A stretch of DNA of 61,287 nt from a virus (Duplodnaviria; Caudoviricetes): the IMG/VR virus record IMGVR_UViG_3300050014_000138, positions 1-61,287 of that record. One strand, 5' to 3'. Below the pieces are notes generated by a model. The model was not told the DNA's origin and searched no databases. It saw only the letters and a list, made by a program, of their open reading frames with translations. Positions 16,268 to 39,908 of this stretch are shown here, one piece after another. The position numbers and the translations under genes were made by a program. Positions within the stretch are counted from its first letter, which is position 1. Each line of letters opens with the position of its first letter.

Positions 16268-17640
16268 ATTTTGTATTTATCTTGAAAATATGTCAAATCT
16301 TCAGGAGTACCTAACCCCCACATTTTATCAATATGAAATATTTTTATCTTTTTGTTATCTTTAATTGCTTCGTTATATACTGGTGCAACATAAAATTCAT
16401 TATTTACTCGGATGTTATTAGAAACCATTTTTTCTGCATATTTAACGTAATCTTCACCATGAGACCAATAGTATATCCCAACGGTTGCTTCATTACTAAT
16501 AACTTCTTTTTCTTTAACTTCTGTAACAAATTTATTGTCATCTAAACGAACATAACTCCATTTTGGATGAGAATTGTTAAAAGTTAAAATACCTCCATCT
16601 ACATTATCTCCAGTCATTGAATACATAAACTCATTACTATCCCATTCAACGAATTGATCTGAGTTCGCAATTAGAAGAGGTTCATTATTATTAATATATT
16701 CTTTTGCAAGTAAGGTTGTGCAGGCGGCACCTTCCGTAATATGATCAATTACGACTATTTTACAGTTTGGTGATATTACGTTTAGTAACTGTTTTAAATT
16801 ATATTTCTCACAATGTTCTTTTTGCACAATAAAGACATGATCGGCATCAATATTTAAATTTTCCACAATGACTTGTATCATTGGTTTGTCATTCATATTT
16901 TTAACTGAAATTAGAGGTTTAGGAAATGTATATCCTGCTTTAACAAATCTACTTCCCGCTCCTGCCATTGGTATTAATACTTTCATACGTCCTCCTTGCC
17001 ACTTGGGTTTAATCAATTTTTCATTAATAGATTCAATATAGTTATTTATATCAATATAATTTATATTGTAAGAGTTTTGAACTGCAAATAAATATGCTCC
17101 GCTATCCAATGCTGCTTTACGTCCAATATGAGAGTCTTCTATTATGACGGTCTCTTTTGGGGATACTCCTGCTTTAATCATACATTGTAGATACATTTCT
17201 ACATTGGGTTTGGGATTAATAACGTCTTGATTTGAATAATAGAAATCTATATAATCTATAAATCCTTTTCTTACAAGCATCATTTTAACTGTTTCTCTAA
17301 TAGAGTTTGATGCCACTGCAATGCAATAACCATCTTTTTTTAGTTTGTTTAAAATTTCTCTTATTCTATCATCATATTTAAATTCATTTATTATGTTAAT
17401 AGTTTCTTTTTGTTTTAATTGCCATACCAAATTGTGGGATTCTTTTGGTAATCCTTTTGTATTGGTAAGCATATTAAGTTTTTTAGTAGTATTAAGTCCA
17501 TCATAACTTGATAAATGTTCTAGTTTATTAATTATATATTTTTTATCTATTGATGCTAGTGCTCTATTAAGTGCTTCGTAATGAATATCTTTTGCATCTA
17601 CCAAAACTCCATCTAAATCAAATATGATAAGTTTAATCAT
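16264..17640 (-). CDS. HAD phosphatase fused to sugar-phosphate nucleotidyltransferase
   Basis: FDLDGVLVD, KP, IEDS..G; LIPMAGAGSRF..PKPL, ANSDQ, LGTPEDL. Confidence 0.85.
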   Translation of the reverse strand: MIKLIIFDLDGVLVDAKDIHYEALNRALASIDKKYIINKLEHLSSYDGLNTTKKLNMLTNTKGLPKESHNLVWQLKQKETINIINEFKYDDRIREILNKLKKDGYCIAVASNSIRETVKMMLVRKGFIDYIDFYYSNQDVINPKPNVEMYLQCMIKAGVSPKETVIIEDSHIGRKAALDSGAYLFAVQNSYNINYIDINNYIESINEKLIKPKWQGGRMKVLIPMAGAGSRFVKAGYTFPKPLISVKNMNDKPMIQVIVENLNIDADHVFIVQKEHCEKYNLKQLLNVISPNCKIVVIDHITEGAACTTLLAKEYINNNEPLLIANSDQFVEWDSNEFMYSMTGDNVDGGILTFNNSHPKWSYVRLDDNKFVTEVKEKEVISNEATVGIYYWSHGEDYVKYAEKMVSNNIRVNNEFYVAPVYNEAIKDNKKIKIFHIDKMWGLGTPEDLTYFQDKYKI

Positions 17641-17642
17641 GA

Positions 17643-17906
17643 TTATTTAATTCCTGCGTGTCCACGATTTTCTTCTTCTGTAAACCATTCATTATATCTA
17701 ATGTTGGTTTTTATTTGAGTTTCTATAGTTTTATCATGATATAACGACATCTCGACTGTATTAGGAAGATTTGCAAATTTTACATATCCTTCCAGTTTTT
17801 CATGTAAACGTCTATTCCATTTTATTTTTGGATCGTTTTTGTAGAGCCTCCCTTGAAAATCGGGGGCGTTTACTATAACTGCTTTATATTTTATTTTTAC
17901 CATCAT
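17643..17906 (-). CDS. C-terminal half of a fractured GT2 glycosyltransferase
   Basis: VNAPDFQGRLYKN...W...LHE...LYH is the R.Y....W...HE...H tail of SpsA-type GT2s; AGGA RBS 7 nt upstream. Confidence 0.75.
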   Translation of the reverse strand: MMVKIKYKAVIVNAPDFQGRLYKNDPKIKWNRRLHEKLEGYVKFANLPNTVEMSLYHDKTIETQIKTNIRYNEWFTEEENRGHAGIK

Positions 17907-18561
17907 ATTTAAGTCCTTTTAATAAATTATCCATCCACGGAATGAATTGTAAATTAATTGGTGCTGCAATCTCTTCTGGTGGAATTTTGTTTAAGAATCC
18001 ATATTTTATAGGCATTATATGGTCTATTTGATATGCTCCATCTACTCCACATCGGCCTCGTTTTGATGGATCATAATTTTGGATTTCTAATATGGTTTTT
18101 CTTGTTAATGTAGTAACCTTATTTCTATACACTATCCATTCATCAGTCTTTCTTCCTCCCCAACATCCACTATCCCACAACTTTTTAGTATATTTTCCAA
18201 TAAGTTCTTTGGTTTCTTGGGAATGTTTAATTCCTTTACGACACTCACCAATATATTTTATAATTTCATTATCTTCTTTTGTTAATCCACTATTCCATGG
18301 TGGAAGTGTTTTTCTTAATTTTTTCATGGATTCTGAAACTTTAAGTGACATTTTTTTAATGGATTCATTAGTTTCTTTCGTCAATCCTCGATTCCATGAT
18401 CCACATTTACAACATAATCTATTTTGTTTATAAGAAGTTTTTGCGGATAAAAAATTTTTATGTATGATATCAGAATTACACCGTGAGCATTTTCTAATCC
18501 AATATGGAATATTTGTATCGTCAATTTTTTCTATTAAATATGGTGGAATTTTTTTACTCAT
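17884..18561 (-). mobile_element. HNH homing endonuclease with NUMOD-like repeats, inserted in GT2 gene
   Basis: CxxC pairs, WN.GLTKE repeats, HSQETKE, YQIDHIMP...NLQFIPW.DN..K. Confidence 0.8.
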
Positions 18562-18594
18562 ATACTCAACCTTAAGGTCGAATATACATATTAT

Positions 18595-19110
18595 CTAAAC
18601 CTTTGTTTCTTCAATAATATATCCATTTTCTTTTAAAAATTTATATTCTGAAGAATTAGTATCTATTATTTTTTCATGTATAATAGATGGTTCTGGGGTT
18701 AATCTCCATCCCCATTGTTTAGCATCTTCTGAAGTTACACCTTTAAAATCATTTACTCTTGGTATTGCGTATAAATCAATCTCAGGATTACTTTGAATAA
18801 TATCTTTTATGTTTATTAAAAGAGTTTCATTGGGAAGTTCATCCCCATCTAATTGAAATATCCATTCTTTACTACATTTTGAGTTACCATAATTTTTATG
18901 CCCACCGTAGTTTTTGTCTAAGGCATGTTGATATATTTTAATTTTATCTGAAAACCTAGACAATATATTTTTTGTTAATTGAGAATCTGAAAAGTCATCT
19001 AATACGATGATTTCATCTTCTGGATCAATTAAAGATACCACTCTAGTAAGTAAATTTTCTAGAGTGGTATCTTCGTTATGACAAGTAATGAGATATGATA
19101 TGCTTGGCAT
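18595..19110 (-). CDS. N-terminal half of a fractured GT2 glycosyltransferase
   Basis: ITCHNE, LDD.S, WIFQLDGDE (DxD), IPRVN, WGW; lacks the C-terminal motifs found in 17643-17906. Confidence 0.8.
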   Translation of the reverse strand: MPSISYLITCHNEDTTLENLLTRVVSLIDPEDEIIVLDDFSDSQLTKNILSRFSDKIKIYQHALDKNYGGHKNYGNSKCSKEWIFQLDGDELPNETLLINIKDIIQSNPEIDLYAIPRVNDFKGVTSEDAKQWGWRLTPEPSIIHEKIIDTNSSEYKFLKENGYIIEETKV

Positions 19111-19114
19111 ATTA

Positions 19115-20488
19115 TTAACTAACAGGTGTTATAGATGTATTTACACTTGTTGTTTTCATAGTATCGGGTTGTGGAGAACATCCTCCAGTCGGCATCTTCA
19201 ATCTTTTTAGTTTTGGAAGTATAATTGATTCTTCCATAGCAAATGTTGGAACATATTTGTTTAGATATTCATGAAATATTTTATCCATTGCTTTTAAAGA
19301 AAATGACTGTTCATTTTCTGCTCTAAGACTTTCTGCATCTTTTATAATATTTTCATCATAATTGCTGAAATAATGTTTCATTTTCTTTCCCGCTTCAAGA
19401 TAATCTACTTCAAACCATCTAGCATCTTTAACAAACCAATCATTCACTGCTTCATCTGGAATTGGTTGAAGACTTCCATCGAAGAATTTGGCATATTTAT
19501 GATTTAAGAAATCTAAATGTCCACTCCATCTTGGTGTAATTACTGGTTTACCACTTAATGTTGCTAACAATAATGGATGTCCAAACCCTTCTCCATGAGT
19601 AAAACTAAGATGAACTTTCACTTTTTCATGATTGAATAATGCATTCATTTCATTATCTTCCAATTCACCATGTAAAAGATATACGTTTGGTAGTTTTGCA
19701 CCTGGATTTTCTTGTTTAACCATATTAGTAACTTCGTGAATTTTGTTAATACAATCATATTTATCCATAATACAAAGTTGTGCTCCACTTGTTTTGAGAA
19801 TTAACGCAGGAGGATTATCAATATTTTTAAAACTTTCTAAAAATGTTTTGATCAAAAATCCAATCGCTTTTCTATCTGATTTCATATTTCCAGCAGTCCA
19901 TTGACCAACAAATAGAAATGTAAATGTTTCTGGTATATTTTTCATTGATTCTTCCAATGTAGATACCTTTTCATCTGTTTTTTTGTATATGTTTGTATTT
20001 GCACCCCAAAATAGAACTTCCATTGGTGATTTAACTTTAAGATCTTCGGATGTTCCATTAGGAAGTTTTTTGGAGTATATTGCATTAACGAATACATCTT
20101 TGGCATGTTGTGATGTCACAAAGTTGACATTCATTCTATTAAGACCTTCTATCCATTCCGCACGGGGAACTGTAGTTTCTATACCTGCGGTCATACCAAT
20201 ATTGAATTTTGCGGGTGTCGCAAACTCGTTTGGTATTGTCATTTGAATGAATACTTCTGGTTGACGAGGCAACTGATTTTTGAGAATTCTGTTAATAAGT
20301 TCTTTTCCTTCTGGATCATTAATCTCAGAATCTAAATTCTTTTTACTGCACGCACCCCATACTGTTGGCGCAAGATGTAGGTCGAATTTATCGTAACGAA
20401 GCAGACTTTTGGCCACTGCTAATGCCCATTCCCCATAACCACTTCGGGTAAAGATTGGACTTTGTAATACACAAATAGGTTTACTCAT
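19115..20488 (-). CDS. GT4-like glycosyltransferase
   Basis: TRSGYG, TAGIET, FLFVGQW, GEGFGHPLL, SGHLDF. Confidence 0.8.
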   Translation of the reverse strand: MSKPICVLQSPIFTRSGYGEWALAVAKSLLRYDKFDLHLAPTVWGACSKKNLDSEINDPEGKELINRILKNQLPRQPEVFIQMTIPNEFATPAKFNIGMTAGIETTVPRAEWIEGLNRMNVNFVTSQHAKDVFVNAIYSKKLPNGTSEDLKVKSPMEVLFWGANTNIYKKTDEKVSTLEESMKNIPETFTFLFVGQWTAGNMKSDRKAIGFLIKTFLESFKNIDNPPALILKTSGAQLCIMDKYDCINKIHEVTNMVKQENPGAKLPNVYLLHGELEDNEMNALFNHEKVKVHLSFTHGEGFGHPLLLATLSGKPVITPRWSGHLDFLNHKYAKFFDGSLQPIPDEAVNDWFVKDARWFEVDYLEAGKKMKHYFSNYDENIIKDAESLRAENEQSFSLKAMDKIFHEYLNKYVPTFAMEESIILPKLKRLKMPTGGCSPQPDTMKTTSVNTSITPVS

Positions 20489-20512
20489 ATTATATTTCTA
20501 GTTCTTTTGGAG

Positions 20513-21040
20513 TTATTTTGTTTCACGGTTTTTAATTTCATCGCTGTATTTCTGTTTAACTGGAATTCCACCCACTTTAGAATATTGTTCTTCAATAGTG
20601 CTGCGTATTGGAGTTTTTAAATCGGTGTGACCAAATCCTCCTGCACCACGGTCAGTTATAGGAAGATTTGATGTTTCTTCAAATTTAACTTCATTATAAT
20701 TTTCAAATATAATTTGAGCTATTTTATCATTAACTAATATTTTCTTATCAACCGATCCGAGATTGATAAGAATCACACCAACATCACCACGATAATCACA
20801 ATCAATTACTCCAGCCATTGTATCTAATCCATCTTTATATGCTAATCCGCTTCGTGGAGCGATTCTTCCATACATTCCATAAGGAATAGCGACTGTAAGA
20901 CCCGTTTTGAATAGTTTGCGTTCCAATGGTTTAAGTGTATATTCTTCGGTCGAATATAAATCATACCCCGCAGAAAAATCGGTTCCGTGGGTAGGTGTAG
21001 TAATTGTATCGTTTGCTTTTTTAATTTGAATTTTAATCAT
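20513..21040 (-). CDS. dut: dUTPase (trimeric)
   Basis: SAGYDL, RIAPRSGLA, AGVIDCDYRG, IAQ, RGAGGFGHT. Confidence 0.95.
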   Translation of the reverse strand: MIKIQIKKANDTITTPTHGTDFSAGYDLYSTEEYTLKPLERKLFKTGLTVAIPYGMYGRIAPRSGLAYKDGLDTMAGVIDCDYRGDVGVILINLGSVDKKILVNDKIAQIIFENYNEVKFEETSNLPITDRGAGGFGHTDLKTPIRSTIEEQYSKVGGIPVKQKYSDEIKNRETK

Positions 21041-21085
21041 ATATTGTAACAAATATTATCATAACTCTATTAATAAAACAACTTA

Positions 21086-22027
21086 TTATACTGGAATTAC
21101 ATTAAAAATATTTCCAGTTTTACCCGTGTTGGTTTTATTAACGTATGATTCGGTTGTTATAATTTCTTTACTGTATAATTCTTGCATATTACCATATTCT
21201 GGTAATATCCAATGATAGTATTCATTTGTAGCTGTAACATATCCCAATATTGCTACTCTTGGTAGTTTAGGAGTTTTATTCAATGATAAATGGTTATTTA
21301 ACGATGGTGCAACAATAACATCATTTTCCATTAATTCATTATAAGCAACTGCTAGACGTGTTCCCAATGCTTCTACATCTGGATCAACTTTCCATATATA
21401 ATTTAACATGGGGTGTCGATTCATTGAAAACGACCCAGTAATACCCGCTATCATTCTACAAAGAGAATTTGTTTCTGCGCCACAGCATAAACATCTAGGA
21501 TTATTTGTAAGATATGCCAATTCAACTAGATTAGTTCTGTTATTATACATTATACCAATATCGTTCATTATTCTGTCAATAGTCCATGGTCTCGGTGATT
21601 TATTGTGATCAGAAAATATAGACGTATCTTCCATAGTTAATGTAAGAATATCATACCTTCTTTTGATAGGTGCATTGGCATTTCTTCCAAGAGGATCTAC
21701 AATTCCGAATATATCATTGTCACATTTTGTTTTAAGAAATTCAAACTCATCACATGGAACAAACCTTCCCCATATATCTTTATTGGTTTGAATGTTTCTA
21801 ATTATTTTAAAATATAATTTTAAATCATCGGTTTCGTAATAATATCCTTCGGTAGGATACTCTATAAGTTCGTCAATATTTATATTGGATTTTTCAAGAA
21901 ACTTTTTTGCTTTTGGCAAACAAATTTCCGTCTCATACTTTTTTATATGTCGGCGGATTTGATTCTCCAACATATAAAAATAATCGGTGTTTGTAATGTC
22001 AACGTCTATTGTGGGTGTGTTATTCAT
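21086..22027 (-). CDS. Hypothetical protein
   Basis: 313-aa ORF coupled to upstream GT; no confident motif. Confidence 0.6.
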   Translation of the reverse strand: MNNTPTIDVDITNTDYFYMLENQIRRHIKKYETEICLPKAKKFLEKSNINIDELIEYPTEGYYYETDDLKLYFKIIRNIQTNKDIWGRFVPCDEFEFLKTKCDNDIFGIVDPLGRNANAPIKRRYDILTLTMEDTSIFSDHNKSPRPWTIDRIMNDIGIMYNNRTNLVELAYLTNNPRCLCCGAETNSLCRMIAGITGSFSMNRHPMLNYIWKVDPDVEALGTRLAVAYNELMENDVIVAPSLNNHLSLNKTPKLPRVAILGYVTATNEYYHWILPEYGNMQELYSKEIITTESYVNKTNTGKTGNIFNVIPV

Positions 22028-23523
22028 ATTTTTATTTCCTCTACTTTTTTATTTAATGCTTCTTTATCAATTTTTGGAATCTCAAATCCCATATTTCCAT
22101 TAAGCATTGTATTTCCAACATAATCTTTATCAGAATATATTCCGAACTTGTCTGGTTTTTTCCAATTTGAGAATACGTATTCCATTCCATCAATAAATTG
22201 TTGACCCATATTTTTTGAATTAAGTCCACCTTCATTAAGTGCCCAACGTCTTCCTTCAGCACCACATGCTTTACGTTTCTGTTCACCCATAAGATACCAA
22301 TACATAAATGCTTCCGCAAAGTCTTCCCATTTAGTTAAATCATCAAATATATAAGGTGTTGGAATACTACCTTGAATAAGACGAGTTACTGGCCAAACAG
22401 GATATGCCCAACAACCGTGTTTTTTATAACGTCCAATGTTGTTAGATCCAAAATTAGCGTCAAATTCCACAGGAGAACCATCATCTTTTGTTTGTCCAAT
22501 TTGATCCTGTAATCCTCCCGTTACTGCAACCGACACTGGAGTTCCACACATAATACTTTCTGCAATAGATAACCCAAATCCTTCATTAGATGATGCATTA
22601 ACAGTCATATCAGCAGCGTTATATAACATACACATATCTTGTGGACTCAATTTTCCAGGAGAAAATACAACATTGTTATCAGGACAAAACGCTTCTTTAA
22701 CCGCAATTAAATTAGTACCTGCATCTTGCATAATCTCAGTATGTAGAATAAGAACACATTTGTCAGCATCTTCTTTTGAAAGATTTTCACAAAATGTCCG
22801 ATATGCCATCATAATATTACTGGTACGTTTTCGATGAACATTTCTACTGTTATACAACATAACAAATTTATATTCTTTATCACCAAAAAGTCGTTTACGA
22901 AATTCAACCATTCTAGGATCATTTTTTGGAATTGGAACAAACGTTTCACTATCAATACCATGAGGACAATATTGTAATAAAGTTCTGCCATTCATTGGAC
23001 CATCATTAATGGTGCAACAATTTTTTTCTCCCATAACCCATTTGTTTAGGTTATATGTTTGTTTACTAATAGAAAACAATGCATCACAACTTTCATAGAA
23101 TGGACGATTGTACATTGGGTATGGTACGTCGTCCCATATATTCAGGTAGGTTAATGGAATTGTATTTCTTATTTGTTTTTCCAAGGCATACAACCACCCC
23201 CAAAATCTAGGATCTGTAAAATGAATAATTGCATCTGGTTTTTCCATTGCTATGATTTGAAATAACATTTGTTCATTACCATAACCATCAGTTGGATATA
23301 GTTTTACATATGCGTCTTTCATTTTTTTAATATCATTAGTCGATTGTGATAAATCGAATACATTTCCTTTCTCGGGGTGTGTTATGGCACCTGCAATTTG
23401 TATAAAATTATATTTATGAACCGTTGATAATACTAATTCTCGTGACATTGTGGCAATTCCACTATTCATCCGTAGGTCGTCACTTAACAATAAAATAGTT
23501 CTTTTTCCATTATTTGCTGGCAT
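22024..23523 (-). CDS. GT4-like glycosyltransferase
   Basis: SGIATM, PHGID, NSRN..RK, NEGFGLSIAE (Ex7E), TGGLQDQ. Confidence 0.85.
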   Translation of the reverse strand: MPANNGKRTILLLSDDLRMNSGIATMSRELVLSTVHKYNFIQIAGAITHPEKGNVFDLSQSTNDIKKMKDAYVKLYPTDGYGNEQMLFQIIAMEKPDAIIHFTDPRFWGWLYALEKQIRNTIPLTYLNIWDDVPYPMYNRPFYESCDALFSISKQTYNLNKWVMGEKNCCTINDGPMNGRTLLQYCPHGIDSETFVPIPKNDPRMVEFRKRLFGDKEYKFVMLYNSRNVHRKRTSNIMMAYRTFCENLSKEDADKCVLILHTEIMQDAGTNLIAVKEAFCPDNNVVFSPGKLSPQDMCMLYNAADMTVNASSNEGFGLSIAESIMCGTPVSVAVTGGLQDQIGQTKDDGSPVEFDANFGSNNIGRYKKHGCWAYPVWPVTRLIQGSIPTPYIFDDLTKWEDFAEAFMYWYLMGEQKRKACGAEGRRWALNEGGLNSKNMGQQFIDGMEYVFSNWKKPDKFGIYSDKDYVGNTMLNGNMGFEIPKIDKEALNKKVEEIKI

Positions 23524-24562
23524 AGGTTTTGATAGTTTCTACTAAGGTTTGTTGTTTATTAAAAATCCATATTTCATGAAGATACCCCATTTCTAAACAT
23601 GTATTATGTTTTATTAATGTTTCTTCTTTTTTAGATTGAAATGTATATTCTGATTTTACTTCTATAAATTTGTTTTGTGATTTTACAAAAATATCTGGAT
23701 AATATCTATGTTTATCATTATTTAAAATATACCATATCTCTGGAATATTTCTTTTTTTAGTTATAATATCATCTTCTAAAATTGTTTTTAGAAGTAAATT
23801 AATGGCGGCGGGTTCATATCCTTGAACTTTTATTTCATTTCCACTTGGATATGTAAACAATTTCCAATTTTTATAACATTTCTCTACTATATCGGGATGT
23901 TGTGATGGAAACCTGACTCCAAAATTTTTTAAATTGGTTTGTGCAGATTTTTCTTTCATTTCGGAAGTTTGTGTTACAAAATCACATCCATATTTTTCTC
24001 TACAAGTTTTTTTAAGATTTCCTACTTGTTTAATATATGACCCATTTTTAATTTTGGTTTCTATTGATTTTTCTGGATTATTCCAAGTTCTACTTCCGTG
24101 CAATTTTTCATTTGTATCATAACATTTTTCACGAGAAATACTATTTTTATTCCAATTATGAGTTACGCCATATTTATTCATCATTGTTTTTTGTTGTAAT
24201 GGTAAATTATTATATGATGAATTTCCATATCGTTCCAATTTAGTTTTTTTAATATTGGTTATTCTGTCAATACTATGAAGAGCACATTTTTTACTACAGA
24301 ATTCTTTCACATATCCATCAAAAAAGGATCGAAATTGTTTACTTGTTAATAAGTTATTACATTTTTTACAATGCTTCTCACCATAAACGTGTTTATAAAG
24401 TTTTTCGGAAAATTTGATTCCATCATATGTAGAGTTAATATAAGAAAATGTGTTACCATAAAGATTATAATTCTTTTTTGATCGAAATATTTGAGTAAAG
24501 TTATCTGGAAATTGATTAACTATATTTAATATTTCATTATGTGATAAAATATTATTTTCCAT
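23510..24562 (-). mobile_element. PD-(D/E)XK endonuclease with (K/E)xYG repeats, putative homing endonuclease
   Basis: KTKLERYG/TMMNKYG/TCREKYG repeats; QGYE, RYYPDIF, IEVKS. Confidence 0.7.
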
Positions 24563-24707
24563 ATTGAGATCCACTGATGGCATTTATAATTGCTATTTGA
24601 GTAAATCCACTCATTGTAAATCCATATTTTTTACAATGAGTTTTTAATATTTCTGCCAAACAATTAGAAATTTGTATAGACCATTTATCTGATTTTTTAC
24701 TGTTCAT
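24552..24707 (-). CDS. Small ribbon-helix-helix-like protein (51 aa), not in ORF track
   Basis: MNSKKSDKWSIQISNCLAEILKTHCKKYGFTMSGFTQIAIINAI...; strand-helix-G-turn-helix pattern. Confidence 0.6.
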   Translation of the reverse strand: MNSKKSDKWSIQISNCLAEILKTHCKKYGFTMSGFTQIAIINAISGSQYGK

Positions 24708-25320: not shown

Positions 25321-26214
25321 TTATTCCAACCGTTCTTTTTTACCATCACATTTTCCATTTTTTAAATATGGACAATATTTACAATTTTTCTTATCTTTTC
25401 CTGGATTTTTTGGATACTTTATGTCGGGTTTGTATGTACCTTCGGAGGTAAAACAAGTATCAATAAATTTTCCAAACTTTTTAATAACTTCTAATACATC
25501 AGATTGGCTAGACGATGGTTTAAAGATTTGAATGCGACTTTGTTCATATCTGCAATTTTCATATAGTTTTCTTCTAAGAATAAAGAATTCAATATTGATC
25601 TTACTAAGAGGAATATTATGAGTTTTACTATATAATGCTTTATATAATAATAATTGAGATATTTTTAACCAATCCTCCCGTTGAGAAGCGTTCCATCCAC
25701 TATTACTGGTTTTAATATCTATAATACGTATGTTTCCCGATTGTTTTTCTCTAAGTAACAAATCTATGAATCCAGTTAAATTTATATTATTTCTAATTTC
25801 GGCATTTAGTTCATCTTCAATTCCAATTAATTCCCATTTATCTCTTGGGAAATGTTGAAGTCTATTTTCTGGAGCACGGAATTCTGAAATAACATTTTTG
25901 GCGTCTTCGACAAATTCATCAAATTCTTCTTTGGTATGGGGAATTTTCTTTTTCTCAATTTCACGCTTAAATGTTTCCATGAATTGTGCCATCATATCAA
26001 CTGCTTCGGCTTCTTTATCACCTTGTTCGTATAACGTTTTTATGTATAATTGGATTGCTTCATGAATAGACGTTCCAAATGTCATGATTAGGTTATCTTC
26101 AAATGTTTTCTCATGAAGAATATAATCACGGTACCATTTGTGTGGACAAGTCCACCAGTTGGAAAATTGTGAATATGATACCGTCTTTTTCTTTTTAATT
26201 ATTTCATCAGTCAT
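25321..26214 (-). CDS. Cas4/RecB-like PD-(D/E)XK exonuclease
   Basis: SYSQ....CP, GTSIHE, GFIDL, IIDIKT, QL..Y, C-terminal CKYCPY...C (1+3 Cys). Confidence 0.85.
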   Translation of the reverse strand: MTDEIIKKKKTVSYSQFSNWWTCPHKWYRDYILHEKTFEDNLIMTFGTSIHEAIQLYIKTLYEQGDKEAEAVDMMAQFMETFKREIEKKKIPHTKEEFDEFVEDAKNVISEFRAPENRLQHFPRDKWELIGIEDELNAEIRNNINLTGFIDLLLREKQSGNIRIIDIKTSNSGWNASQREDWLKISQLLLYKALYSKTHNIPLSKINIEFFILRRKLYENCRYEQSRIQIFKPSSSQSDVLEVIKKFGKFIDTCFTSEGTYKPDIKYPKNPGKDKKNCKYCPYLKNGKCDGKKERLE

Positions 26215-26299
26215 TTATGAATAATATCATATTTTATGCTGGTCATCAACTTTTTATACTATAGCCATATATTTATTCGTATAATATTTTTTAAAACAT

Positions 26300-26515
26300 A
26301 TGGCTAATATAACAATTTCAATACCCGATGCACAACTAACCAGAGTAGTAGATGCATTTGCGATAAAATTTAACTGGGATGGTAGCATATCTAAACCATT
26401 ATTTGCAAAACAGAAATTAATGGAAATGATTATCAAAACCGTTTATGAAACAGAAACAAATGCAGCGGTAGTCACCGCAATGAATTCTATTAACCAAAAT
26501 TTAACAATAACGTAA
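26300..26515 (+). CDS. Hypothetical protein
   Basis: 71-aa ORF with upstream TATTTATT motif. Confidence 0.55.
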   Translation: MANITISIPDAQLTRVVDAFAIKFNWDGSISKPLFAKQKLMEMIIKTVYETETNAAVVTAMNSINQNLTIT

Positions 26516-26573
26516 TATTTTTAATTACGAATTCATTTTCAGAATCTGGATAAATTTTTAATTTTATAAAAAG

Positions 26574-26609
26574 TTGTAATATTTTTATTCTTCAGGTAAT
26601 CTACCTGAA
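26574..26609 (+). promoter_or_regulatory. sigma70-like promoter whose -10 lies inside an 8-bp inverted repeat
   Basis: TTGTAA-17-TAATCT; TTCAGGTA-atc-TACCTGAA (26591-26609) abuts ATG 26610. Confidence 0.45.
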
Positions 26610-27050
26610 ATGAATAGAAGAAATTTTTTTAAAAGTCTTGGTATGTCGTCTTTAGTAGCGACAATTCTTCCATCTGTGTTGCTTAACGCAAAAGAAGTTC
26701 CATCAAAAGAAATTGCTCAAAAAGTAGGAGATATATATGAAATTATGTCTCCTGATGACATTAAAGAATGGTTGGGCGAAGATAGATATATGGAAACTCC
26801 TGTTAAAATGTATAATGGAAAAGCATATGTTGCGAGAATGTATAGACTTAAACTTCGAATCTGTGGAAATGCTTTAAGTTTAAAAAATCATTGGATTGAA
26901 GATGCCAAGGAAGACGCAAAAAATGAGATTAATGAATTGAAATTAACACATCTTTGTTCGGTTAGATTTCATAGTTCTCCAATTTTTTATTCAGATGAAA
27001 CCTTTGGATATCATTCATATGTTAGGGGAGTTAAAGTTATAAATGTATGA
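26610..27050 (+). CDS. Protein with twin-arginine (Tat)-like N-terminus
   Basis: MNRRNFFKSLG + hydrophobic stretch + LNA/K. Confidence 0.6.
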   Translation: MNRRNFFKSLGMSSLVATILPSVLLNAKEVPSKEIAQKVGDIYEIMSPDDIKEWLGEDRYMETPVKMYNGKAYVARMYRLKLRICGNALSLKNHWIEDAKEDAKNEINELKLTHLCSVRFHSSPIFYSDETFGYHSYVRGVKVINV

Positions 27051-27343
27051 CATTAAATCAACTTAATATTTTAAATGAACAAGAATTAGCAATGATATTA
27101 TATGTTGTTAATGTCATTTCTCCACCAGAATCTCCAAAAATGGAATTTGAAAAACGGCATCTTGTATGGTTTAAGCATGATCAACTTGTAAAAAAGATGG
27201 TTGATGCTTTCCCAAAACTGTTGCCAGAAGGATATCCTATTTATCTTACATTGATGAATAAACTGGGTGTAAAAGGAGAAATAAAATATCCACACCCACC
27301 ATTGCCAGTTACAGAATCAACTCAAAACACAGGATCTATATGA
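27047..27343 (+). CDS. Hypothetical protein
   Basis: ATGA-coupled on both sides. Confidence 0.6.
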   Translation: MTLNQLNILNEQELAMILYVVNVISPPESPKMEFEKRHLVWFKHDQLVKKMVDAFPKLLPEGYPIYLTLMNKLGVKGEIKYPHPPLPVTESTQNTGSI

Positions 27344-27741
27344 ATAAAAGAAACTTTATAAAATATGCTACATTAGGCGTTGCTAGTTGTATAACTAGTC
27401 CAATATCACTTGTTAAAACAACCGAACCAGTCCCAGGATTAGGATCTGAAAAAGATTATCTCTGTCCATCTGATAGGATAGTAATGGAAGAAATTAAAGT
27501 TAAAATGAGCGGTTGTGCTGAACAATTCTGTTTTGAACCAATGGATAATACTGTTATAACTAGAGCACATTGTAAATTTAATAATATGTTAGAAGATTTT
27601 AAAAAGAATGGACAATGTCGAGAGATTGGAGTTGACTCTCTCAGTTTAAATGATAAAGTTTTATATGGACAAGTTTGGATTAGACCAAATAATTTTGAAG
27701 ATTATATCATACTTGATTTTCATATTTTTGCGAATTCATAA
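27340..27741 (+). CDS. Tat-like N-terminus + tail-sheath C-terminal-like domain
   Basis: MNKRNFIK...; FCFEPMD..., L...K.NG, LYGQVWIRP...DYIILDF. Confidence 0.55.
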   Translation: MNKRNFIKYATLGVASCITSPISLVKTTEPVPGLGSEKDYLCPSDRIVMEEIKVKMSGCAEQFCFEPMDNTVITRAHCKFNNMLEDFKKNGQCREIGVDSLSLNDKVLYGQVWIRPNNFEDYIILDFHIFANS

Positions 27742-27804
27742 ATGTGAAATAAAGTCTTGTATTGATTGACATTATCAGTTAATATGGTGAGATTAATAAA
27801 TTAT

Positions 27805-28410
27805 ATGAATGTGGGAAATAAAAGACGAGTATTTATAAACTCGGGTGAACGATTTGGGAAACTTGTTGTAATAGGTGAATCTTCTTTAGAAGAAAGACCT
27901 TTGTGTGATAATAGTCATGTTTATTATAAATGTAGATGTGATTGTGGAAATATTAAAATAGTAAGATCTGCTAATCTTAAACGAAAGCATAATGTGTCTT
28001 GTGGATGCCAAAAGAAAATAAGTGGAACAAAAAATATACAACAATGGATATCCGATGGAGGTATTAATCCCAATCGAGAATTCGTAGGACAAATAAGTGG
28101 AGCATTGTGGTGTCATATTAAAAATAATGCCAAAGAAAGAAACCACAAGATTGATATAACAAAAGAATATATATGGGAACTTTTCTTGAAACAAAATGGT
28201 AAGTGTGCATTGACAGGGTTAAAATTGAAATTATCTCCATTAAGTATAAATCGTTATGATAATGATGCATCTTTAGATAGGATAGATTCAAAAATTGGAT
28301 ATGTAATTGGGAATGTTCAATGGGTTCATAAGGATGTTAATTTTATGAAAATGGATTTCCCAGAAGATTATTTTGTGAAAATGTGTAAGTTAGTATCTAT
28401 AAATAAATAA
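27805..28410 (+). mobile_element. HNH-like putative homing endonuclease upstream of polB
   Basis: RFGKL.V, CRCDCGN, SCGC; GKCALTG, SLDRIDS..GY..GNVQWVHK.VN.MK. Confidence 0.8.
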
Positions 28411-28411
28411 T

Positions 28412-30988
28412 ATGTATAAAAATATATTTCATGATAGAAAAACCGAAATGGTTTATTTATGGGATGATGAAGCTGGAATGATAAATATTCCATCATGCAA
28501 ACTACATTATGCATATCGTCGATGTGTCGGTGGAAAATATAAATCTCTTTACGGGGATGAACTTGAAAAGGTAACTAATTATGATGATAGAGATCCATCA
28601 TTATTTGAATCTGATGTAAGTATAGAGATGAAGTGCTTGATCGATGCTTACGGAGGTAATGATGAAGTTTCTAAGGGGCATAAAATAATTATAATCGATA
28701 TAGAAGTAAGCACCGAAGGAGGTTTTCCTGATATTATGGCAGGTGATAAAGCAATTACCGCAATTGCACTTTATGATCAAGCAGGAAGTAAATATTATCA
28801 GTTTGTTCTTGATCCAGATAAAAAGATTGTTAATAAAGACGAGAATGGGATTGATTTACGATCTTTTAAAAATGAAGAAAATTTATTGGAAGTATTTTTA
28901 AATAAGTGGGGAGAAATTAATCCAACGATCGTAACTGGATGGAATACTAATGGATTTGATATTCCATACATGTTTAATAGAATTCGTGCGGTTCTTGGGA
29001 AACAACAAGCATATAGATTATCTCCAATCAATATTGCCTATCAAAATAGGTTTAATAGGAAGATGGTTATTGCAGGAATTTCTTGTTTGGATTATATGGA
29101 TCTTTATAAGAAGTTCATTGGCGTTATGAAACCATCTTGGTCATTATCAAATGTGGCTAAAGATGAAGAATTAAAACATCAGAAAATAACGTATAAGGGT
29201 AGTTTAAATGATCTTTATAAGAATGATCTTCAACGATATGTTGAATACAATTTAATGGATGTGGAAGTTGTTGTAGAATTAGATAAGAAATATGATTTTA
29301 TTTATTTGGCAAGATCTGTTTGTCACAAGGGTCATGTTCCATATGAATGGTTTCAAATGTCTAGTAGGTTCATTGATGGTGCTATATTGGATTATTTACA
29401 TTCCAATAGTTTGATAGGTCCAAACAAACCAGTTGGTGGTCGAGAAGAGTATGAAGAGATGGAGAAAGAAGGAGAAGATGGGTTTACGGGTGCATATGTT
29501 AAAGAACCTATTCCAGGTTTATATGATTGGATATATTCTGTTGATATTACATCACTGTATCCTTCTGCCATTATGACGTTAAATATATCCAACGAAACGA
29601 AAGTTGGAAAGATTGAAGGATGGGATAAAATTGAATTTGATAAGGGGAATATCCCTATTGTTAGAGTATCCGATCACGCTTATACGTCTGATGAATTTAA
29701 GAAGATGATTGATAATTATACATTTTCAATCGCAAGTAGTGGTGCGGTATATCGTCAAGATGTTAAAGGTGTTATTCCAACTATTCTTGATACTTGGTTT
29801 TCAGAACGTGTTGAGTATCGTCAACTTGCACATAAGTTTGGTCAAGAAGGTGATAAAGAAAAAGAAGGATTTTATGATCGTCGTCAGAAGAGACAGAAAA
29901 TATTCTTAAACTCTGTGTATGGAGTAATGGGACTTCCTATTTTTAGATTCTATGATAGAGATAATGCCGAAGCAACAACTATTAGTGGTCAAACAATCAT
30001 TAAATCTGCCGAGAGGTTGGTTAATGATACATATTTACAAAAGTTTAAAGATAAGAATGTAGTTCCCAAGGAAGAATCATTTGTTAAATATATTGATACT
30101 GATTCGTTGTATATTTCTTCCCTTCCTCTTGCACAACTTGATGGTAATGTAACAGATATGACAAAGTTTTCGGTTGACTTATCATTAGAAATTTCTGATA
30201 AGATTAACCGATTCTATAAATATATGGTTCCTCGTATATTTAATGTTTCTCCAGAACATAATCGTATTAAAATTGTTCCCGATGTAATTGCCAAGAAAGC
30301 ACTTTGGGTTGCTAAAAAGCGATATGCCATGCTTAAAGTGTATGACATGGAAAAAAATAAAGCAGTCAAAGATAAAGCTGGCAATGAAGGTAAACTTGAG
30401 GTAAAAGGTATTGATACAGTCAGGTCTAGTTTTCCAAGTGCGTTTAGAAAGTTTGCAGGAGAAATATTGGATCAGTTGCTTCGGGGTGTTCCTCGTGAAA
30501 TATTGGACGAGAAAATTATGAAATTTGAAGAGACTATAGACAGTCATAGTATATTTGATATGTCCAAAACTAGTTCTGCAAAATTTGTGTCAAAAGATGG
30601 AGAAAAAAATTATAATCCTCCAGGAAGACATATTTTTCAATTTGTGCAAGGGTCTCCACCTCAAGTTAAAGCAGCGTTAGCATACAACGATTTTCTTAAG
30701 GTTTGGAAGTTGGATAAAACGATTGAAAAAATTGAAAATGGAGCAAAAGTAAAATGGACATATTTATTGCCTAATGATTTTAATGTTGAACAATTAGCAA
30801 TGAAAGCAGATGATACTGACCCAGATCAAATATTGGAATTTGTTACAACTCATATTGATCGCCGTAAAGTATATGATAGAGAATTGCACAGTAAATTGGA
30901 AGAAATCTATACTGTGGTAGGTTGGCATTATCCAAATCGTGGATCTCAATTAGCATCAAAAACATTTAATTTTGATGAAGTTTGGTAA
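28412..30988 (+). CDS. polB: Family B DNA polymerase (T4 gp43-like)
   Basis: ExoI DIE, ExoII GWN..GFDIPY, ExoIII YN..DV; DITSLYPS, KIFLNSVYG, YIDTDS, KKRY, VKG. Confidence 0.96.
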   Translation: MYKNIFHDRKTEMVYLWDDEAGMINIPSCKLHYAYRRCVGGKYKSLYGDELEKVTNYDDRDPSLFESDVSIEMKCLIDAYGGNDEVSKGHKIIIIDIEVSTEGGFPDIMAGDKAITAIALYDQAGSKYYQFVLDPDKKIVNKDENGIDLRSFKNEENLLEVFLNKWGEINPTIVTGWNTNGFDIPYMFNRIRAVLGKQQAYRLSPINIAYQNRFNRKMVIAGISCLDYMDLYKKFIGVMKPSWSLSNVAKDEELKHQKITYKGSLNDLYKNDLQRYVEYNLMDVEVVVELDKKYDFIYLARSVCHKGHVPYEWFQMSSRFIDGAILDYLHSNSLIGPNKPVGGREEYEEMEKEGEDGFTGAYVKEPIPGLYDWIYSVDITSLYPSAIMTLNISNETKVGKIEGWDKIEFDKGNIPIVRVSDHAYTSDEFKKMIDNYTFSIASSGAVYRQDVKGVIPTILDTWFSERVEYRQLAHKFGQEGDKEKEGFYDRRQKRQKIFLNSVYGVMGLPIFRFYDRDNAEATTISGQTIIKSAERLVNDTYLQKFKDKNVVPKEESFVKYIDTDSLYISSLPLAQLDGNVTDMTKFSVDLSLEISDKINRFYKYMVPRIFNVSPEHNRIKIVPDVIAKKALWVAKKRYAMLKVYDMEKNKAVKDKAGNEGKLEVKGIDTVRSSFPSAFRKFAGEILDQLLRGVPREILDEKIMKFEETIDSHSIFDMSKTSSAKFVSKDGEKNYNPPGRHIFQFVQGSPPQVKAALAYNDFLKVWKLDKTIEKIENGAKVKWTYLLPNDFNVEQLAMKADDTDPDQILEFVTTHIDRRKVYDRELHSKLEEIYTVVGWHYPNRGSQLASKTFNFDEVW

Positions 30989-31012
30989 AATTATATAATT
31001 TTTAGTAAAAAT

Positions 31013-33438: not shown

Positions 33439-34122
33439 ATGTTTAAAATTGAAATGGAAGAAAAAGAAACTCCGATTCAATCTACGCTTTGGGCGGAAAA
33501 ATACCGCCCAAATCAATTAGATGATTTTGTCGGAAATAGTGTAATAATGGAATCAATTAAATTGTGGATTGAAAAAAAAGACATACCACAAGTTTTTTTG
33601 TTTGGTTCTCCTGGATGTGGTAAAACGAGTCTGGCGAAAATCCTTATTAAACATATTCCTTGTGATGTATTGTTTCTTAATGCGTCCGATGAAAACTCAG
33701 TAGATATAATGCGAAATAAGGTTCAAGATTTCGCTATGACAATGGGAATGGAACCTTTAAAAATTATCATACTGGATGAATGTTTAGATGAAAATACTAT
33801 TATATGGGTATTACGAGATGGAAAAGAACAAGGAATCCCCATAAAAGATGTTAACTCGAATGATGATTTAGTTAAATCATTAAATATAGATCAGAATAGA
33901 ATAGAGTGGAGACCTTTTTATTTAATAAATCAAGGGGAGAAAGAAGTGTATGAAATTGAATTTAATAATGGAGAAGTTGTTATATGTACTGATACACATA
34001 AGTGGTATGTAAAAGATGATAATGATAAAATTATTCGTGTTAAAACGATTGATTTAATCCGTGGTAAATATAACTCTATTCTAACAACAGAAGAAAATCG
34101 GATGATTTCCGAATCTCAATGA
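33439..34122 (+). CDS. Clamp loader ATPase (gp44/RFC-small) N-extein + split intein N-fragment
   Basis: WAEKYRP, GSPGCGKTS, LNASD, IIILDE, then intein block A CLDENT (from 33781) and block B CTDTHKW. Confidence 0.93.
   Translation: MFKIEMEEKETPIQSTLWAEKYRPNQLDDFVGNSVIMESIKLWIEKKDIPQVFLFGSPGCGKTSLAKILIKHIPCDVLFLNASDENSVDIMRNKVQDFAMTMGMEPLKIIILDECLDENTIIWVLRDGKEQGIPIKDVNSNDDLVKSLNIDQNRIEWRPFYLINQGEKEVYEIEFNNGEVVICTDTHKWYVKDDNDKIIRVKTIDLIRGKYNSILTTEENRMISESQ
33781..34119 (+). mobile_element. Split intein N-fragment (IntN, 113 aa)
   Basis: Cys1; G.KEVYEIEF..G..V.CTDTH Hint motifs; stops without blocks F/G. Confidence 0.9.
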
Positions 34123-35075
34123 TATTTATTATTATGAATAATAAATCTAGATATCATAGACAATTTTTTTCGGATTGTGAGATACAATATTTGGTAGAAA
34201 AATATAGGGGTGGGGTTAAATGGAAATCGTTATGGAATGAAACAATATTTGATTCCGAATATAAATGGAGAAATGATATTATTAGACATATGGATAATTT
34301 GTCGTGTAATAAATTTTTTTATGAATTAGAATTTCCACTGTTTTGTAAACATTGTGGAATTAGATTGTTGGAAAGTTCATATTGTTATGGAGGTAAATGG
34401 AAAGGAGCAGATAAAGGATTTCATAAATATTGTCCTTTATGTGAGTCTAAATGTGTTTGGAAATCTATAATAAAATCTTCACAGGAATGTGAAAATATAT
34501 CTAATGGATTAAAAAAATGGGCTAAAACATCCGAAGGTAAAAATTATTATAAATTAAGAGGTAACGCAAATAGTCAATTTATGAAAGATTTTTCCCTCAG
34601 TGTTAATGGAAAAAAAATTAAAAAACAAGCATCCAAAAAACAATCCATCACAATGCGAGAAAAAATTAAAAACGGAGAATTTACTCCTAATATAACTAAT
34701 TCGTGGACACATTGGGATGCAAAAATAAAAATTGATGGTAAAATAAAAAAATTCAGAAGTTCGTGGGAAGCTTGTTTTTATATATGCAATTCTAATTTAA
34801 AATATGAAATGTTAAGAATTCCATATGGTGATAAAATTTATATTGCGGATTTTTATGATGAAAAAAATAGAATTTTATACGAATTGAAACCAAGAGCATC
34901 ATATAATACACAAATAAAAAAAATAACCGAAATTATAGAATATTGTAAAGAAAATGGAATAATATTTAAATGGATTAATGAAAATAACATTTTGAAATAT
35001 ATTGATTCTTCCAAAATTAACGGATATAATAGGAAACAGTATAATAAGATGATGCGAGGATTAAAATATGTATGA
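34119..35075 (+). mobile_element. Free-standing PD-(D/E)XK (TnsA-like) endonuclease between the intein halves
   Basis: FRSSWE, YE...IPY, YIADFYD, YELKP; N-terminal CxxC; overlaps both flanking ORFs; alternative start 34134. Confidence 0.8.
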
Positions 35076-35799
35076 ATTAAAAATAAAATCTATTAAAAAA
35101 TCTGGAATTAGGAAAACGTTGGATATATCGGTAGATGGAACTCATAATTTTTTTATTGGTAAGTCTAAAATATTAACATCTAATTGTGATCGTCTCACAC
35201 CCGAAGCACAATGTTGTATGCGTAATCTTACTGAAACATATTCACAATCAACGAGGTTTATTTTAACCGCAAATTATCAAGAGAAAATAATACCTGCAAT
35301 TAAATCAAGGTTTCAAAGTTTTGAGATTAAACCTCCTTCTAAAGCTGAAGTGATGAAACATCTGGTTAAAGTATTAAATAAGGAAAATATTAAATATAAA
35401 CCAGAAGATGTGGCATTCATTGTATCATCATATTTCCCTGATATGAGAAAAATAATTAATTTTTCTCAACAATCATCTATCAATGGTGAATTGAAGATTG
35501 CCAAAGCTAATTCAGCAGATCATGATTTTAAGACGAAATTGATTGAATTACTTAAAACTCCTAGTAAAGCGGGTATATTCACCGAGATTAGACAACTTGT
35601 TGCTGATGCATCGTTTTCTAATTATGAAGAAGTATATAAATATCTTTTCGATCATGTTAATGAATATGCCCCAAATAAAGCACCCGAAGTCATTTTACAT
35701 CTTGCAGACGCAGTATATCAATCTGCTCTTGTATTTGAACGTGAAATTACATTTGTAGCAGCAATGCACAAGTTATTAACGGTATTGAATAGTAAATAA
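35068..35799 (+). CDS. Split intein C-fragment (39 aa) + clamp loader C-extein
   Basis: KIKSIKK..., block F LDISVDGTHNFF, block G ILTSN|C (35184|35185); then CDRLTPEAQ, FILTAN, IKSR, DMRK. Confidence 0.93.
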   Translation: MYELKIKSIKKSGIRKTLDISVDGTHNFFIGKSKILTSNCDRLTPEAQCCMRNLTETYSQSTRFILTANYQEKIIPAIKSRFQSFEIKPPSKAEVMKHLVKVLNKENIKYKPEDVAFIVSSYFPDMRKIINFSQQSSINGELKIAKANSADHDFKTKLIELLKTPSKAGIFTEIRQLVADASFSNYEEVYKYLFDHVNEYAPNKAPEVILHLADAVYQSALVFEREITFVAAMHKLLTVLNSK

Positions 35800-36291: not shown

Positions 36292-36332
36292 TAAAGTATA
36301 TTCTATTGCATATGACCAATATGTATGGGTAT

Positions 36333-37094
36333 ATGAAATACAAAATATACAAATTACAAAATAAGATAAATGGAAAAATTTATATTGGTAAAACTAAACG
36401 ATCTATTGTAGCGAGGATGAAGGATCATAGAAATAGTAAATGTTGTATTTATCTTTATAATGCGTTGAAAAAATATGGAGAAGATGGATTCGATATAAAC
36501 ATTATTTACGAGACTGATAATGAGGATGATATATGTCGAAAAGAAAAAGAATATATTTTACAATATAATTCATTAGTTCCGAATGGATATAATTTAGTAT
36601 TGGATACAGATCAAGGACGAACATTTCATAGTTCTACCAAACAATTAATGAGTAATAATACTCAAGGTGGTTGTAAAACTGTTAAAATATGGTCTAAGTA
36701 TATTGGTGTTAGATCTCGTAAAAATAGCAAATTATATTCTGTTAGAGTTACTAAAAATCAAAAAACATACTTCCATTATTATACTAACGAGTTAGATGCG
36801 GCGAAGGCATATGATAAAGTTGTTTTGTATTTATATGGATTAAATGCTAAATTAAATTTTCCAGAGAAGTTTGAAATATATAAAACTATTAATTTAAAAG
36901 AATTTTTTTGTGAATTTTGTAAAAAACATACAAAAACATCGAAATATATAGGTGTATCTAAAATGTCTTATTATGAAAATTCTCCTTGGAGAGCATATGT
37001 TTATAAAGATAAAAAACAAATAAATTTAGGAATATATAAAACAGAAAAAGAGGCTTATGACGCAAGAAAAAAATATAATGATAAAATCAAATAA
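36333..37094 (+). mobile_element. GIY-YIG homing endonuclease with two AP2-like domains
   Basis: IYKLQN..NGKIYIGKT, E..YI, NGYN; two SKYIGV...(E.DAAKAYD / E.EAYDAR) AP2 repeats. Confidence 0.88.
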
Positions 37095-38095: not shown

Positions 38096-39196
38096 ATGAT
38101 TGACAATAAGTTAATATCATCTGTAATTACAGTTATCCCAACTTTACCAATTCGTGGTCTATATTATATTGGGCAGTATGGTACTAGCGGATATGCTTCA
38201 GCGGCAAGAGGATATCTATATCATTATTTTACAAACGGGATCCCAATAACTTGGGATCCTTTATATTTTGATAATTCAAAATTGAGTGATGAAGACGTAT
38301 ATGATGTAGTTATTAAATCATTAATAAATAAACCATTACCAAATTGTGATATGGTTATAATGCATAGCACTCCTGATTTATGGCCAAAGTTTTGGAATGA
38401 TAAACGCAATATATTAAACAATAAAGTTGTTAATGGGTATTGTACTTGGGAAACAAATAGATTACCAGTTGATTGGGTAAAATGTATAAATGGATATGTT
38501 AATGAAGTATGGTGTCCATCAACATACAATGAAACTACATTTAAAGAATCTGGAGTAACTAAACCAATACGAGTGGTTCCACATATATTTCTTCCTCATA
38601 AACTACCGAATCGTAAAATGATTAAGATAACCAGTTTTTCAAACGAAGAACTGTTGAAAGACAATAATAGATTTACATTTTATTCCATTGGAGAAATGAA
38701 CGCTCGGAAGGGAATTGATGATACTATTAAATCATTCTGTACCGCATTCAAAGAATCTGATCCAGTACGACTAATTCTTAAAGTTCATTATAAAGATTAT
38801 TCTTATAAAAATAAGAAAAAGTGTGAAGATATGGTTTCTGATATAATTAAAGAATTTCCTTCTCATGCACCAATTATTTGTTTATTTGATAATATGACAA
38901 ACAATGAAATGCTTGCATTACATTCTATTGGAGATTGTTATGTGAGTTTAACTAAATCAGAAGGATTTGGGTTAACTATATTTGATGCATTTAATTATAA
39001 TAAAAAAATTATTTGTACTGGATATGGTGGACATATGGATTTTCTTGGTAATAGTTATTCAGGACTTATTGATTATAAAATTGGTTCAGTTAATGGAATG
39101 AGTTCTTTTTCGTCCAATTATACCGAAGACCAATCATGGGCATATCCAAACTTGGATCATGCAGTTGAATTAATGAGAAGAGAAGTCAATATATGA
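38096..39196 (+). CDS. GT4-like glycosyltransferase
   Basis: SGYA, TWET, PS.YN, RKG, SEGFGLTIFDA. Confidence 0.85.
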   Translation: MIDNKLISSVITVIPTLPIRGLYYIGQYGTSGYASAARGYLYHYFTNGIPITWDPLYFDNSKLSDEDVYDVVIKSLINKPLPNCDMVIMHSTPDLWPKFWNDKRNILNNKVVNGYCTWETNRLPVDWVKCINGYVNEVWCPSTYNETTFKESGVTKPIRVVPHIFLPHKLPNRKMIKITSFSNEELLKDNNRFTFYSIGEMNARKGIDDTIKSFCTAFKESDPVRLILKVHYKDYSYKNKKKCEDMVSDIIKEFPSHAPIICLFDNMTNNEMLALHSIGDCYVSLTKSEGFGLTIFDAFNYNKKIICTGYGGHMDFLGNSYSGLIDYKIGSVNGMSSFSSNYTEDQSWAYPNLDHAVELMRREVNI

Positions 39197-39906: not shown

Positions 39907-39908
39907 AT

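Follow-up and report, generated by a model that had tools for sequence, protein, structure and literature searches.

The 133-aa open reading frame (ORF) P0001, located at 27340..27741 (+) of IMG/VR virus record IMGVR_UViG_3300050014_000138, is predicted to encode a two-part protein in which an N-terminal signal-like module of ~38 residues precedes a diverged, ~85-residue C-terminal copy of a contractile tail-sheath domain. Residues ~45–129 (27472..27726, +) are very probably homologous to the C-terminal domain of tail sheath proteins (Phage_sheath_1C, PF17482), with the sheaths of the phage's own lineage as closest relatives, and by alignment they span nearly all of PF17482. The record was analyzed whole (61,287 bp, 29.6% G+C; hereafter, the window); its CheckV completeness estimate is 17%, and the window is therefore a piece of a much larger genome. 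In agreement with a sequence-only reading of this DNA, P0001 starts with ATG and contains, in this order, MNKRNFIK, an uncharged stretch, FCFEPMD, KKNG, LYGQVWIRP and DYIILDF, and the sheath-like domain indeed stands by itself in the 133-aa protein. Residues 1–8 (MNKRNFIK; 27340..27363, +) form a basic n-region with a net charge of +3. They are followed by an uncharged, moderately hydrophobic stretch of 17 aa (residues 9–25; 27364..27414, +; mean Kyte-Doolittle value 1.41), then by Lys26, and the sheath-like domain is predicted to comprise two helices and then three strands.

The window's family B DNA polymerase (PolB) belongs to the T4 gp43 type and, among cultured phages, is closest to that of Microcystis phage Mel-JY01 (39.9% identity); T4-like phages lie at approximately 30%. 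A profile built from P0001 and its homologue P0002 was run against Mel-JY01 and against three IMG/VR relatives reached through PolB (G001, G002 and G003). One match was obtained in each of the three related genomes that bear a sheath, always on the PF17482 region. In Mel-JY01 (190 kb, six frames), the sole profile match (E = 5e-5, 20.7 bits, query positions 53–135) was located at 34131–34385, in the same frame as the PF17482 match at 34080–34382; the coding sequence concerned carries the annotation 'tail sheath C-terminal domain protein', with the tube gene following it. The sole matches in G001 (119 kb; E = 1.6e-6, 25 bits) and G003 (130 kb; E = 3.1e-4) were likewise on the PF17482 region, and nothing was matched in G002, where PF17482 itself has no match. 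Further, no structural gene of the three related genomes was matched by a profile of the A-type family, to which belongs a 146-aa neighbor of P0001 that carries the same N-terminal module on an unrelated mature domain (P0001 and P0002 are referred to as B-type).

The two B-type proteins were also compared with an alignment of 59 sheath C-terminal domains, made up of 58 distinct C-termini from 80 IMG/VR loci plus that of Mel-JY01. (The sheath C-terminus of phage P2, tried as a search seed, had yielded only sheaths that were 93–99% identical and was useless for a diverse profile.) With hhalign, the two families aligned over 74 columns with a probability of 78% and E = 1.8e-5; a second setting gave a score of 35.8, whereas 300 column-shuffled profiles scored 22.8 at best and the reversed profile scored 10.3. 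When 10,002 sequences, 10,000 of them shuffles, were ranked with the sheath hidden Markov model (HMM), P0001 came 1st and P0002 11th. When P0001 was compared pairwise with the end of the Mel-JY01 sheath by BLASTP, the strand pair VLYGQ...LDF.I aligned with E = 5e-7; this pair lies in the block that is best conserved between the lone domain and true sheaths, VLYGQ..I.P....[FY]I.LDF.I. The domain assignment of the sequence-only reading was thus borne out, in lineage-specific profile tests only.

Structure searches point weakly to a sheath/gp25 fold. The AlphaFold2 (AF2) model of P0001 has a mean predicted local distance difference test (pLDDT) value of 59, with 66–78 over most of residues 41–130 and <50 for residues 1–39, and contains helices at 43–63 and 72–89 and strands at 93–104, 107–116 and 123–130. 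For the ESM Atlas model of the target (pLDDT 0.63), neighbor clusters carrying PF17482, DUF2586 and GP46 were found with template modeling (TM) scores of 0.56–0.69, all below the tool's bar. In the BFVD, there was one match at E ≤ 0.001, and rows named baseplate W, sheath initiation protein and IraD/Gp25-like (E = 7e-3 to 5e-2), as well as DUF7355, were among the neighbors. The Foldseek search of the PDB gave no match at E ≤ 0.001; the matches listed contained no sheath chain, and included the gp25-like 2ia7 at rank 4 (TM 0.37/0.43) and IraD at rank 29 (TM 0.40/0.48), both among the matches with better coverage.

As an observation aside, the BFVD neighbors included small non-structural proteins from T4-like phages, namely DUF7355 of Erwinia phage Cronus, Serratia phage X20 and Escherichia phage EcS1, and cd.3 of phage VR7. 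These model-based neighbors hint that annotation may understate how common it is for gp25/sheath-like domains to stand alone away from the baseplate.

Several results weigh against the sheath assignment, among them the missing PDB matches just mentioned and the low confidence of the structure models (AF2 pLDDT 59; Atlas 0.63 and 0.44). Neither the PF17482 nor the PF04984 model matched anywhere in the window at E ≤ 10; P0001 does not reach the PF17482 gathering threshold (26.9 bits) and is formally outside the Pfam family, and no family was assigned to it by hmmscan with Pfam (at E ≤ 1 and E ≤ 10), PHROG or NCBIfam. The two-sequence profile matched none of three further phages (T4, P2 and one Shigella T4-like phage), which restricts the similarity to one lineage. 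P0002 is by itself weakly sheath-like (6.4 bits with the sheath HMM; BLASTP E = 0.002 against the Mel-JY01 sheath), and single-sequence searches of the PDB returned unrelated top matches (azurin, E = 1.1; a zinc-finger design, E = 0.34). When the profile was searched against 177,635 PDB sequences at E ≤ 10, the one sequence matched was that of a tail sheath protein from a phage, over its last 100 residues, and the E of 1.4 was not significant.

The lack of a significant result with curated HMMs, with Foldseek against the PDB and with the profile against PDB sequences, together with the marginal scores of P0002 alone, would suit a resemblance arising from chance or composition, P0001 then being an unrelated small α/β protein. 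However, three independent genome searches each returned a single match, all on a domain specified beforehand, nothing was found in the sheath-less genome, the A-type profile matched no structural gene, the shuffle controls were exceeded, and the structural neighbors agree with a sheath/gp25 fold. We thus give a chance resemblance very little credence.

Compared to the C-terminal domain in T4-related sheaths of the Mel-JY01 kind, P0001 is homologous over nearly the whole domain and shares the terminal motif, and its predicted secondary structure follows the same order, in agreement with the modeled fold neighbors. In contrast, the true domain forms the end of a sheath of 800–1100 aa, whereas P0001 lacks the N-terminal part of the sheath, has a signal-like N-terminus instead, and is encoded among replication genes. 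Only four residues follow its LDFHI strand, compared to approximately ten in true sheaths. The lone domain is 25–28% identical to sheath C-terminal domains, which are 75–91% alike among themselves; this strong divergence from a conserved parent means that the original contacts may be lost, a further point against a role that depends on them.

The proteins of the gp25/gpW/TssE group and IraD (PF04965) are also small and stand-alone (~100–140 aa) and have the fold of the sheath C-terminal domain, as the models weakly suggest for P0001. Unlike them, P0001 gave no sequence match to PF04965, and in the related genomes the profile matched the sheath and not the gp25 homologue. The target further differs by its signal-like N-terminus and by its position outside a baseplate gene cluster.

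The P0001 gene is most readily understood as a real, fast-evolving accessory gene. A phmmer search of 1.84 billion representative proteins (E ≤ 0.001) returned two proteins, the target itself and P0002 (129 aa, E = 3e-4), which are 34% identical in pairwise BLASTP (E = 1e-13). P0002 is encoded on L002, a 7.9-kb metagenome contig with the gene order exonuclease (−), 99-aa ORF, 108-aa ORF, P0002, 78-aa ORF and PolB, so that its position matches that of P0001 in the window. The 108-aa ORF is a homologue of the 98-aa ORF that precedes P0001; in the window, the target's ATG overlaps the TGA stop of the 98-aa ORF in an ATGA at 27340–27343, and the same 4-nt overlap is found in L002. Identity between the window and L002 amounts to 73% for PolB, 52% for the 98/108-aa ORF and 34% for P0001/P0002, and by this comparison the B-type gene has diverged much faster than polB. 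The motifs conserved between P0001 and P0002 are distributed over the full length of the protein, and it is the persistence of an open, co-linear, two-part frame at 34% identity that argues for a real gene.

The B-type gene is missing from most relatives. It was found in none of 80 PolB-neighborhood loci, and IMG/VR scans with the two-sequence profile and with P0002 gave no confirmed locus. Neither megablast of 26000–31000 nor tblastn of the target protein found a match among 50,697 phage records. Word-index protein searches returned the target alone (one of four candidates) and, with the two-sequence profile, just the two known members among 464 candidates. That the family has two members, both metagenomic and neither from a complete genome, is a reservation to be set against the role proposed below. 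So small a family (two among 1.84 billion representatives), with such fast divergence, might also be taken for a decaying, functionless by-product of a partial duplication of the sheath gene. However, both copies are fully open, with the same architecture, position and 4-nt overlap, their conserved motifs run along the whole protein, and an unconstrained frame would be expected to close at 34% identity; this explanation is accordingly judged improbable. Contigs from four further sequencing runs showed no differences over 26300–28400, a result that is uninformative on selection. The sequencing runs listed as containing this DNA included none of RNA.

The N-terminal module of P0001 resembles a signal peptide of the twin-arginine translocation (Tat) pathway. 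Only two ORFs of the window combine an [KR]R.F motif near the start with an uncharged stretch, the target and the 146-aa A-type ORF at 26610..27050 (+; MNRRNFFK...), and hhalign aligned the A-type and B-type families at residues 1–38 only (96.8%). Across six carriers, the module reads N-[KR]-R-[NT]-F-[FIL], followed by 13–23 uncharged residues with a mean hydropathy of 0.69–1.98; two Sec-like signal peptides from neighboring genes of relatives have higher values (1.91–2.19). The Tat consensus motif is S/T-R-R-x-F-L-K. Five of the six carriers, P0002 and four A-type proteins, have N-R-R-[NT]-F, in line with R-R-x-F-[FIL], and the target has N-K-R-N-F-I-K. A moderately hydrophobic h-region followed by a basic residue, which is a Tat criterion, is present in P0001 as the 17 uncharged residues before Lys26.

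The Tat-like N-terminus claimed in the sequence-only reading is plausible. Its motif, its modest hydropathy and its portability between cargos agree with Tat signals. On the other side, the copy in the target is KR and not RR, an Ala-x-Ala cleavage site is not evident, and no Tat model was matched at threshold: PF10518 (TAT_signal) gave 12.1 bits for the A-type ORF of the window (cut-off 22.7) and nothing for the other five of the six carriers, and NCBIfam gave no Tat model match. Export is thus putative. Language-model neighbors of P0002 included TAT_signal clusters (scores 0.80–0.87), which the tool treats as no more than leads. A lipoprotein reading was also considered for the target copy, in which VASC at Cys17 (27388–27390) fits the lipobox pattern and would make a lipid anchor possible; it was dropped, as Cys17 is not conserved in P0002.

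The portability of the module is most evident at the nucleotide level. The first 66 nt of the L002 B-type gene (906–971) and of the A-type gene of another locus, L003 (1642–1707), are identical at 60 of 66 positions (91%). By comparison, only 12 of the 60 nt upstream of the two genes are identical, and the PolB N-termini of the two loci share 65% identity. Such identity on unrelated cargos, above that of PolB, indicates that the module is portable and better conserved than a core gene. It suggests that the signal-encoding 5′ ends in L002 and L003 form a recombining or concertedly evolving cassette, and a near-identical signal cassette on unrelated cargos points to export signals being swapped as modules in these large phages.

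The genomic setting is a string of replication-type genes before polB, away from tail genes, much as the sequence-only reading had claimed. From 26300, this co-directional string extends through polB as far as the genes for the clamp and clamp loader; a promoter/terminator scan, which performed no better than shuffles, revealed no terminator-like site before polB on that strand. None of the 45 window proteins scanned matched a virion-structure PHROG family; the PHROG matches comprised glycosyltransferases, methyltransferases, nucleotide enzymes, replication proteins and homing endonucleases. We propose that P0001 is likely produced together with the replication genes, and that it likely arose by duplication of the 3′ end of a sheath gene followed by fusion behind the signal module.

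With regard to function, the sheath itself offers a starting point. As set out in the accessible part of PMC10457771, the β-sheet of the sheath C-terminal domain receives the N- and C-terminal strands of two neighboring subunits in a 'handshake', the sheath initiator gp25 shares both this fold and the platform role, and the tail terminator also docks there through its C-terminus. In P0001, the terminal strand pair is best kept and the donor arms are missing, which would make the lone domain an acceptor-only module. We regard it as marginally probable that the folded domain crosses the cytoplasmic membrane or is tethered to its outer face. In that location, the free β-sheet platform of the exported domain would bind a partner, perhaps a piece of the tail of a related contractile phage arriving at the cell, although we hold this identification to be doubtful. 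Candidate surfaces would be the tube bared by sheath contraction or an arm whose usual docking site is the sheath domain. Such binding would prevent a second infection, i.e., cause superinfection exclusion, and export would keep the fragment apart from the phage's own assembling tails.

Taken as a whole, the chain by which a sheath-derived domain would be exported and act at the envelope is put forward tentatively, as a possibility that falls short of the probable. Its most specific form is unlikely: a periplasmic mimic of the sheath domain would recognize a surface of a relative's tail that is exposed after contraction and jam DNA delivery, with the cassette serving as a toolkit for envelope effectors. 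Since a sheath never enters the periplasm, a target located there is conjectural. A bacterial effector that acts in the periplasm and stops the entry of phage DNA was described recently (PMC13128918, accessible part), where Tat is mentioned, in that part, only as an engineered signal peptide. Superinfection exclusion by blocking the DNA entry of a second phage is the role of T4 Imm and Sp, according to the accessible part of PMC11436027. P0001 is like these small envelope-directed phage proteins in supposed role and position only, which makes them a loose precedent; no relationship in sequence or fold was seen, and no search aimed at one was made. In T4, imm and imm.1, which encode membrane proteins, adjoin DNA polymerase gene 43; imm is downstream of gene 43, whereas the target is upstream of polB.

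An exported or tethered domain could also have acquired a job unrelated to tails, its fold then providing only a compact scaffold that binds some part of the host envelope (for example, a periplasmic enzyme, a transporter or a receptor). The heavy divergence from sheath domains noted above would suit such a change, as would the presence of IraD and other non-structural gp25-like small proteins among the fold neighbors; IraD is an instance of the gp25-like fold used as a regulator in E. coli. Moreover, the occurrence of the module on an unrelated cargo, with Sec-signal proteins at the corresponding place in relatives, suggests a general envelope-directed accessory set. However, the acceptor sheet's terminal strand pair forms the best-kept block, which hints that the original type of contact is retained, and no host partner can be named. 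We see this new role as possible, if somewhat doubtful.

By the positive-inside rule, which is established knowledge, the basic N-terminus and the uncharged stretch would place the domain outside. This argues against P0001 acting in the cytoplasm or on the inner face of the membrane as a factor for the phage's own tail (a gp25-like initiator, a capper or an assembly chaperone), with the N-terminus as an anchor or irrelevant. That role would agree with the structural equivalence of a lone sheath C-terminal domain to gp25, as given in the accessible part of PMC10457771, and with fold neighbors that are mostly gp25, W or sheath-initiator proteins. In contrast, the gene lies among replication and not tail genes, and its N-terminal module is common to an unrelated protein. 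The gene is also absent from the sheath-bearing G001 and G003 and from all 80 PolB-neighborhood loci, and is thus not essential. A part in the phage's own tail is accordingly rated as quite unlikely.

The sequence-only reading had also considered a decoy or poison for the contractile machines of competitors, acting inside the cell on type VI secretion systems (T6SS) or the tails of co-infecting phages, or outside it on tailocins. An acceptor-only domain without donor arms could cap a growing sheath, to judge from the sheath architecture in the accessible part of PMC10457771. However, T6SS and tail assembly are cytoplasmic and the N-terminus is export-like, so that the T6SS and assembly-poison versions fit badly with export: an exported domain would not meet cytoplasmic sheaths or assembling tails. 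A cytoplasmic poison would, in addition, strike the sheath of the phage itself, to which it is most closely related, and there is no sign of secretion past the outer membrane. Thus, a decoy or poison ranks among the least probable roles considered.

For the proposed export of a sheath-derived domain, the architecture is supported by sequence comparisons and export is plausible. In the titles and abstracts of the literature searched, with subscription journals and supplements outside this scope, a signal peptide joined to a lone sheath domain among replication genes was not described. Sheath C-terminal domains were previously known as parts of sheaths and, as gp25/TssE, as baseplate initiators. 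If P0001 is exported and binds tail parts, it would represent a new principle by which phages exclude one another, as well as a natural probe of the surfaces that contraction exposes; with host parts as its partner, it would exemplify the recruitment of a virion domain to act at the envelope as an effector. The case also marks a limit of annotation, since curated HMMs overlook a domain that a two-sequence profile detects at once in the lineage's own genomes.

The region around P0001 is bordered on the left by a divergent PD-(D/E)XK/Cas4-like exonuclease gene (25321..26214, −). On the right, polB (28412..30988, +) anchors a gene order shared with L002, L003 and a further locus, L088. The interval between exonuclease and polB varies among relatives and is rich in small signal-bearing proteins; upstream of polB in Mel-JY01, no Tat-like ORF was found. 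The conserved 98-aa ORF (27047..27343, +) has no family match, overlaps both the A-type ORF and the target by 4 nt, and has homologues in L002 (52% identity), L088 (47%) and L090 (29%). It may be a partner or chaperone of the signal-bearing proteins, which is an idea only; complex prediction for the families of the 98-aa ORF and the target gave a score of 0.00, which weighs neither for nor against binding. An HNH-type endonuclease gene (27766..28410, +) separates the target from polB; in L002, the 78-aa ORF occupies this position.

The A-type family comprises proteins of 146–164 aa (window 26610–27050 (+), L003:1642–2136, L088:2744–3202 and L089:1889–2338) with no Pfam or PHROG family. Its homologue in L003 is directly before PolB, and homologues were found in three of the 80 PolB-neighborhood loci (L088, L106 and L089). 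The AF2 model of the A-type protein was poor (pLDDT 51), and the corresponding BFVD search was unusable (TM ~0.3). In L088 (1941–2690), L089 (4–771) and L090 (2398–3138), a protein of ~250 aa with a classical Sec-type signal was observed between the exonuclease and A-type genes, and the window has no counterpart at that position.

Elsewhere in the window, the clamp-loader gene is apparently split on the + strand into 33439–34122 (PHROG positions 8–109) and 35068–35799 (positions 108–307), with an endonuclease-like ORF (34119–35075) between the pieces and overlapping both; the L002 gene is intact (322 aa). Homing/HNH/GIY-YIG-type endonuclease genes are located in or beside the replication module at 23510–24583 and 36306–37094, as well as at 27766–28410. 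Finally, the regions 6044–23523 (−) and 38096–50907 (+) are unusually dense in glycosyltransferase-like genes (at least six PHROG matches) and also encode several methyltransferases, a nucleotide-sugar epimerase, a HAD hydrolase fusion and a dUTPase, which suggests DNA hypermodification or the remodeling of surface glycans.

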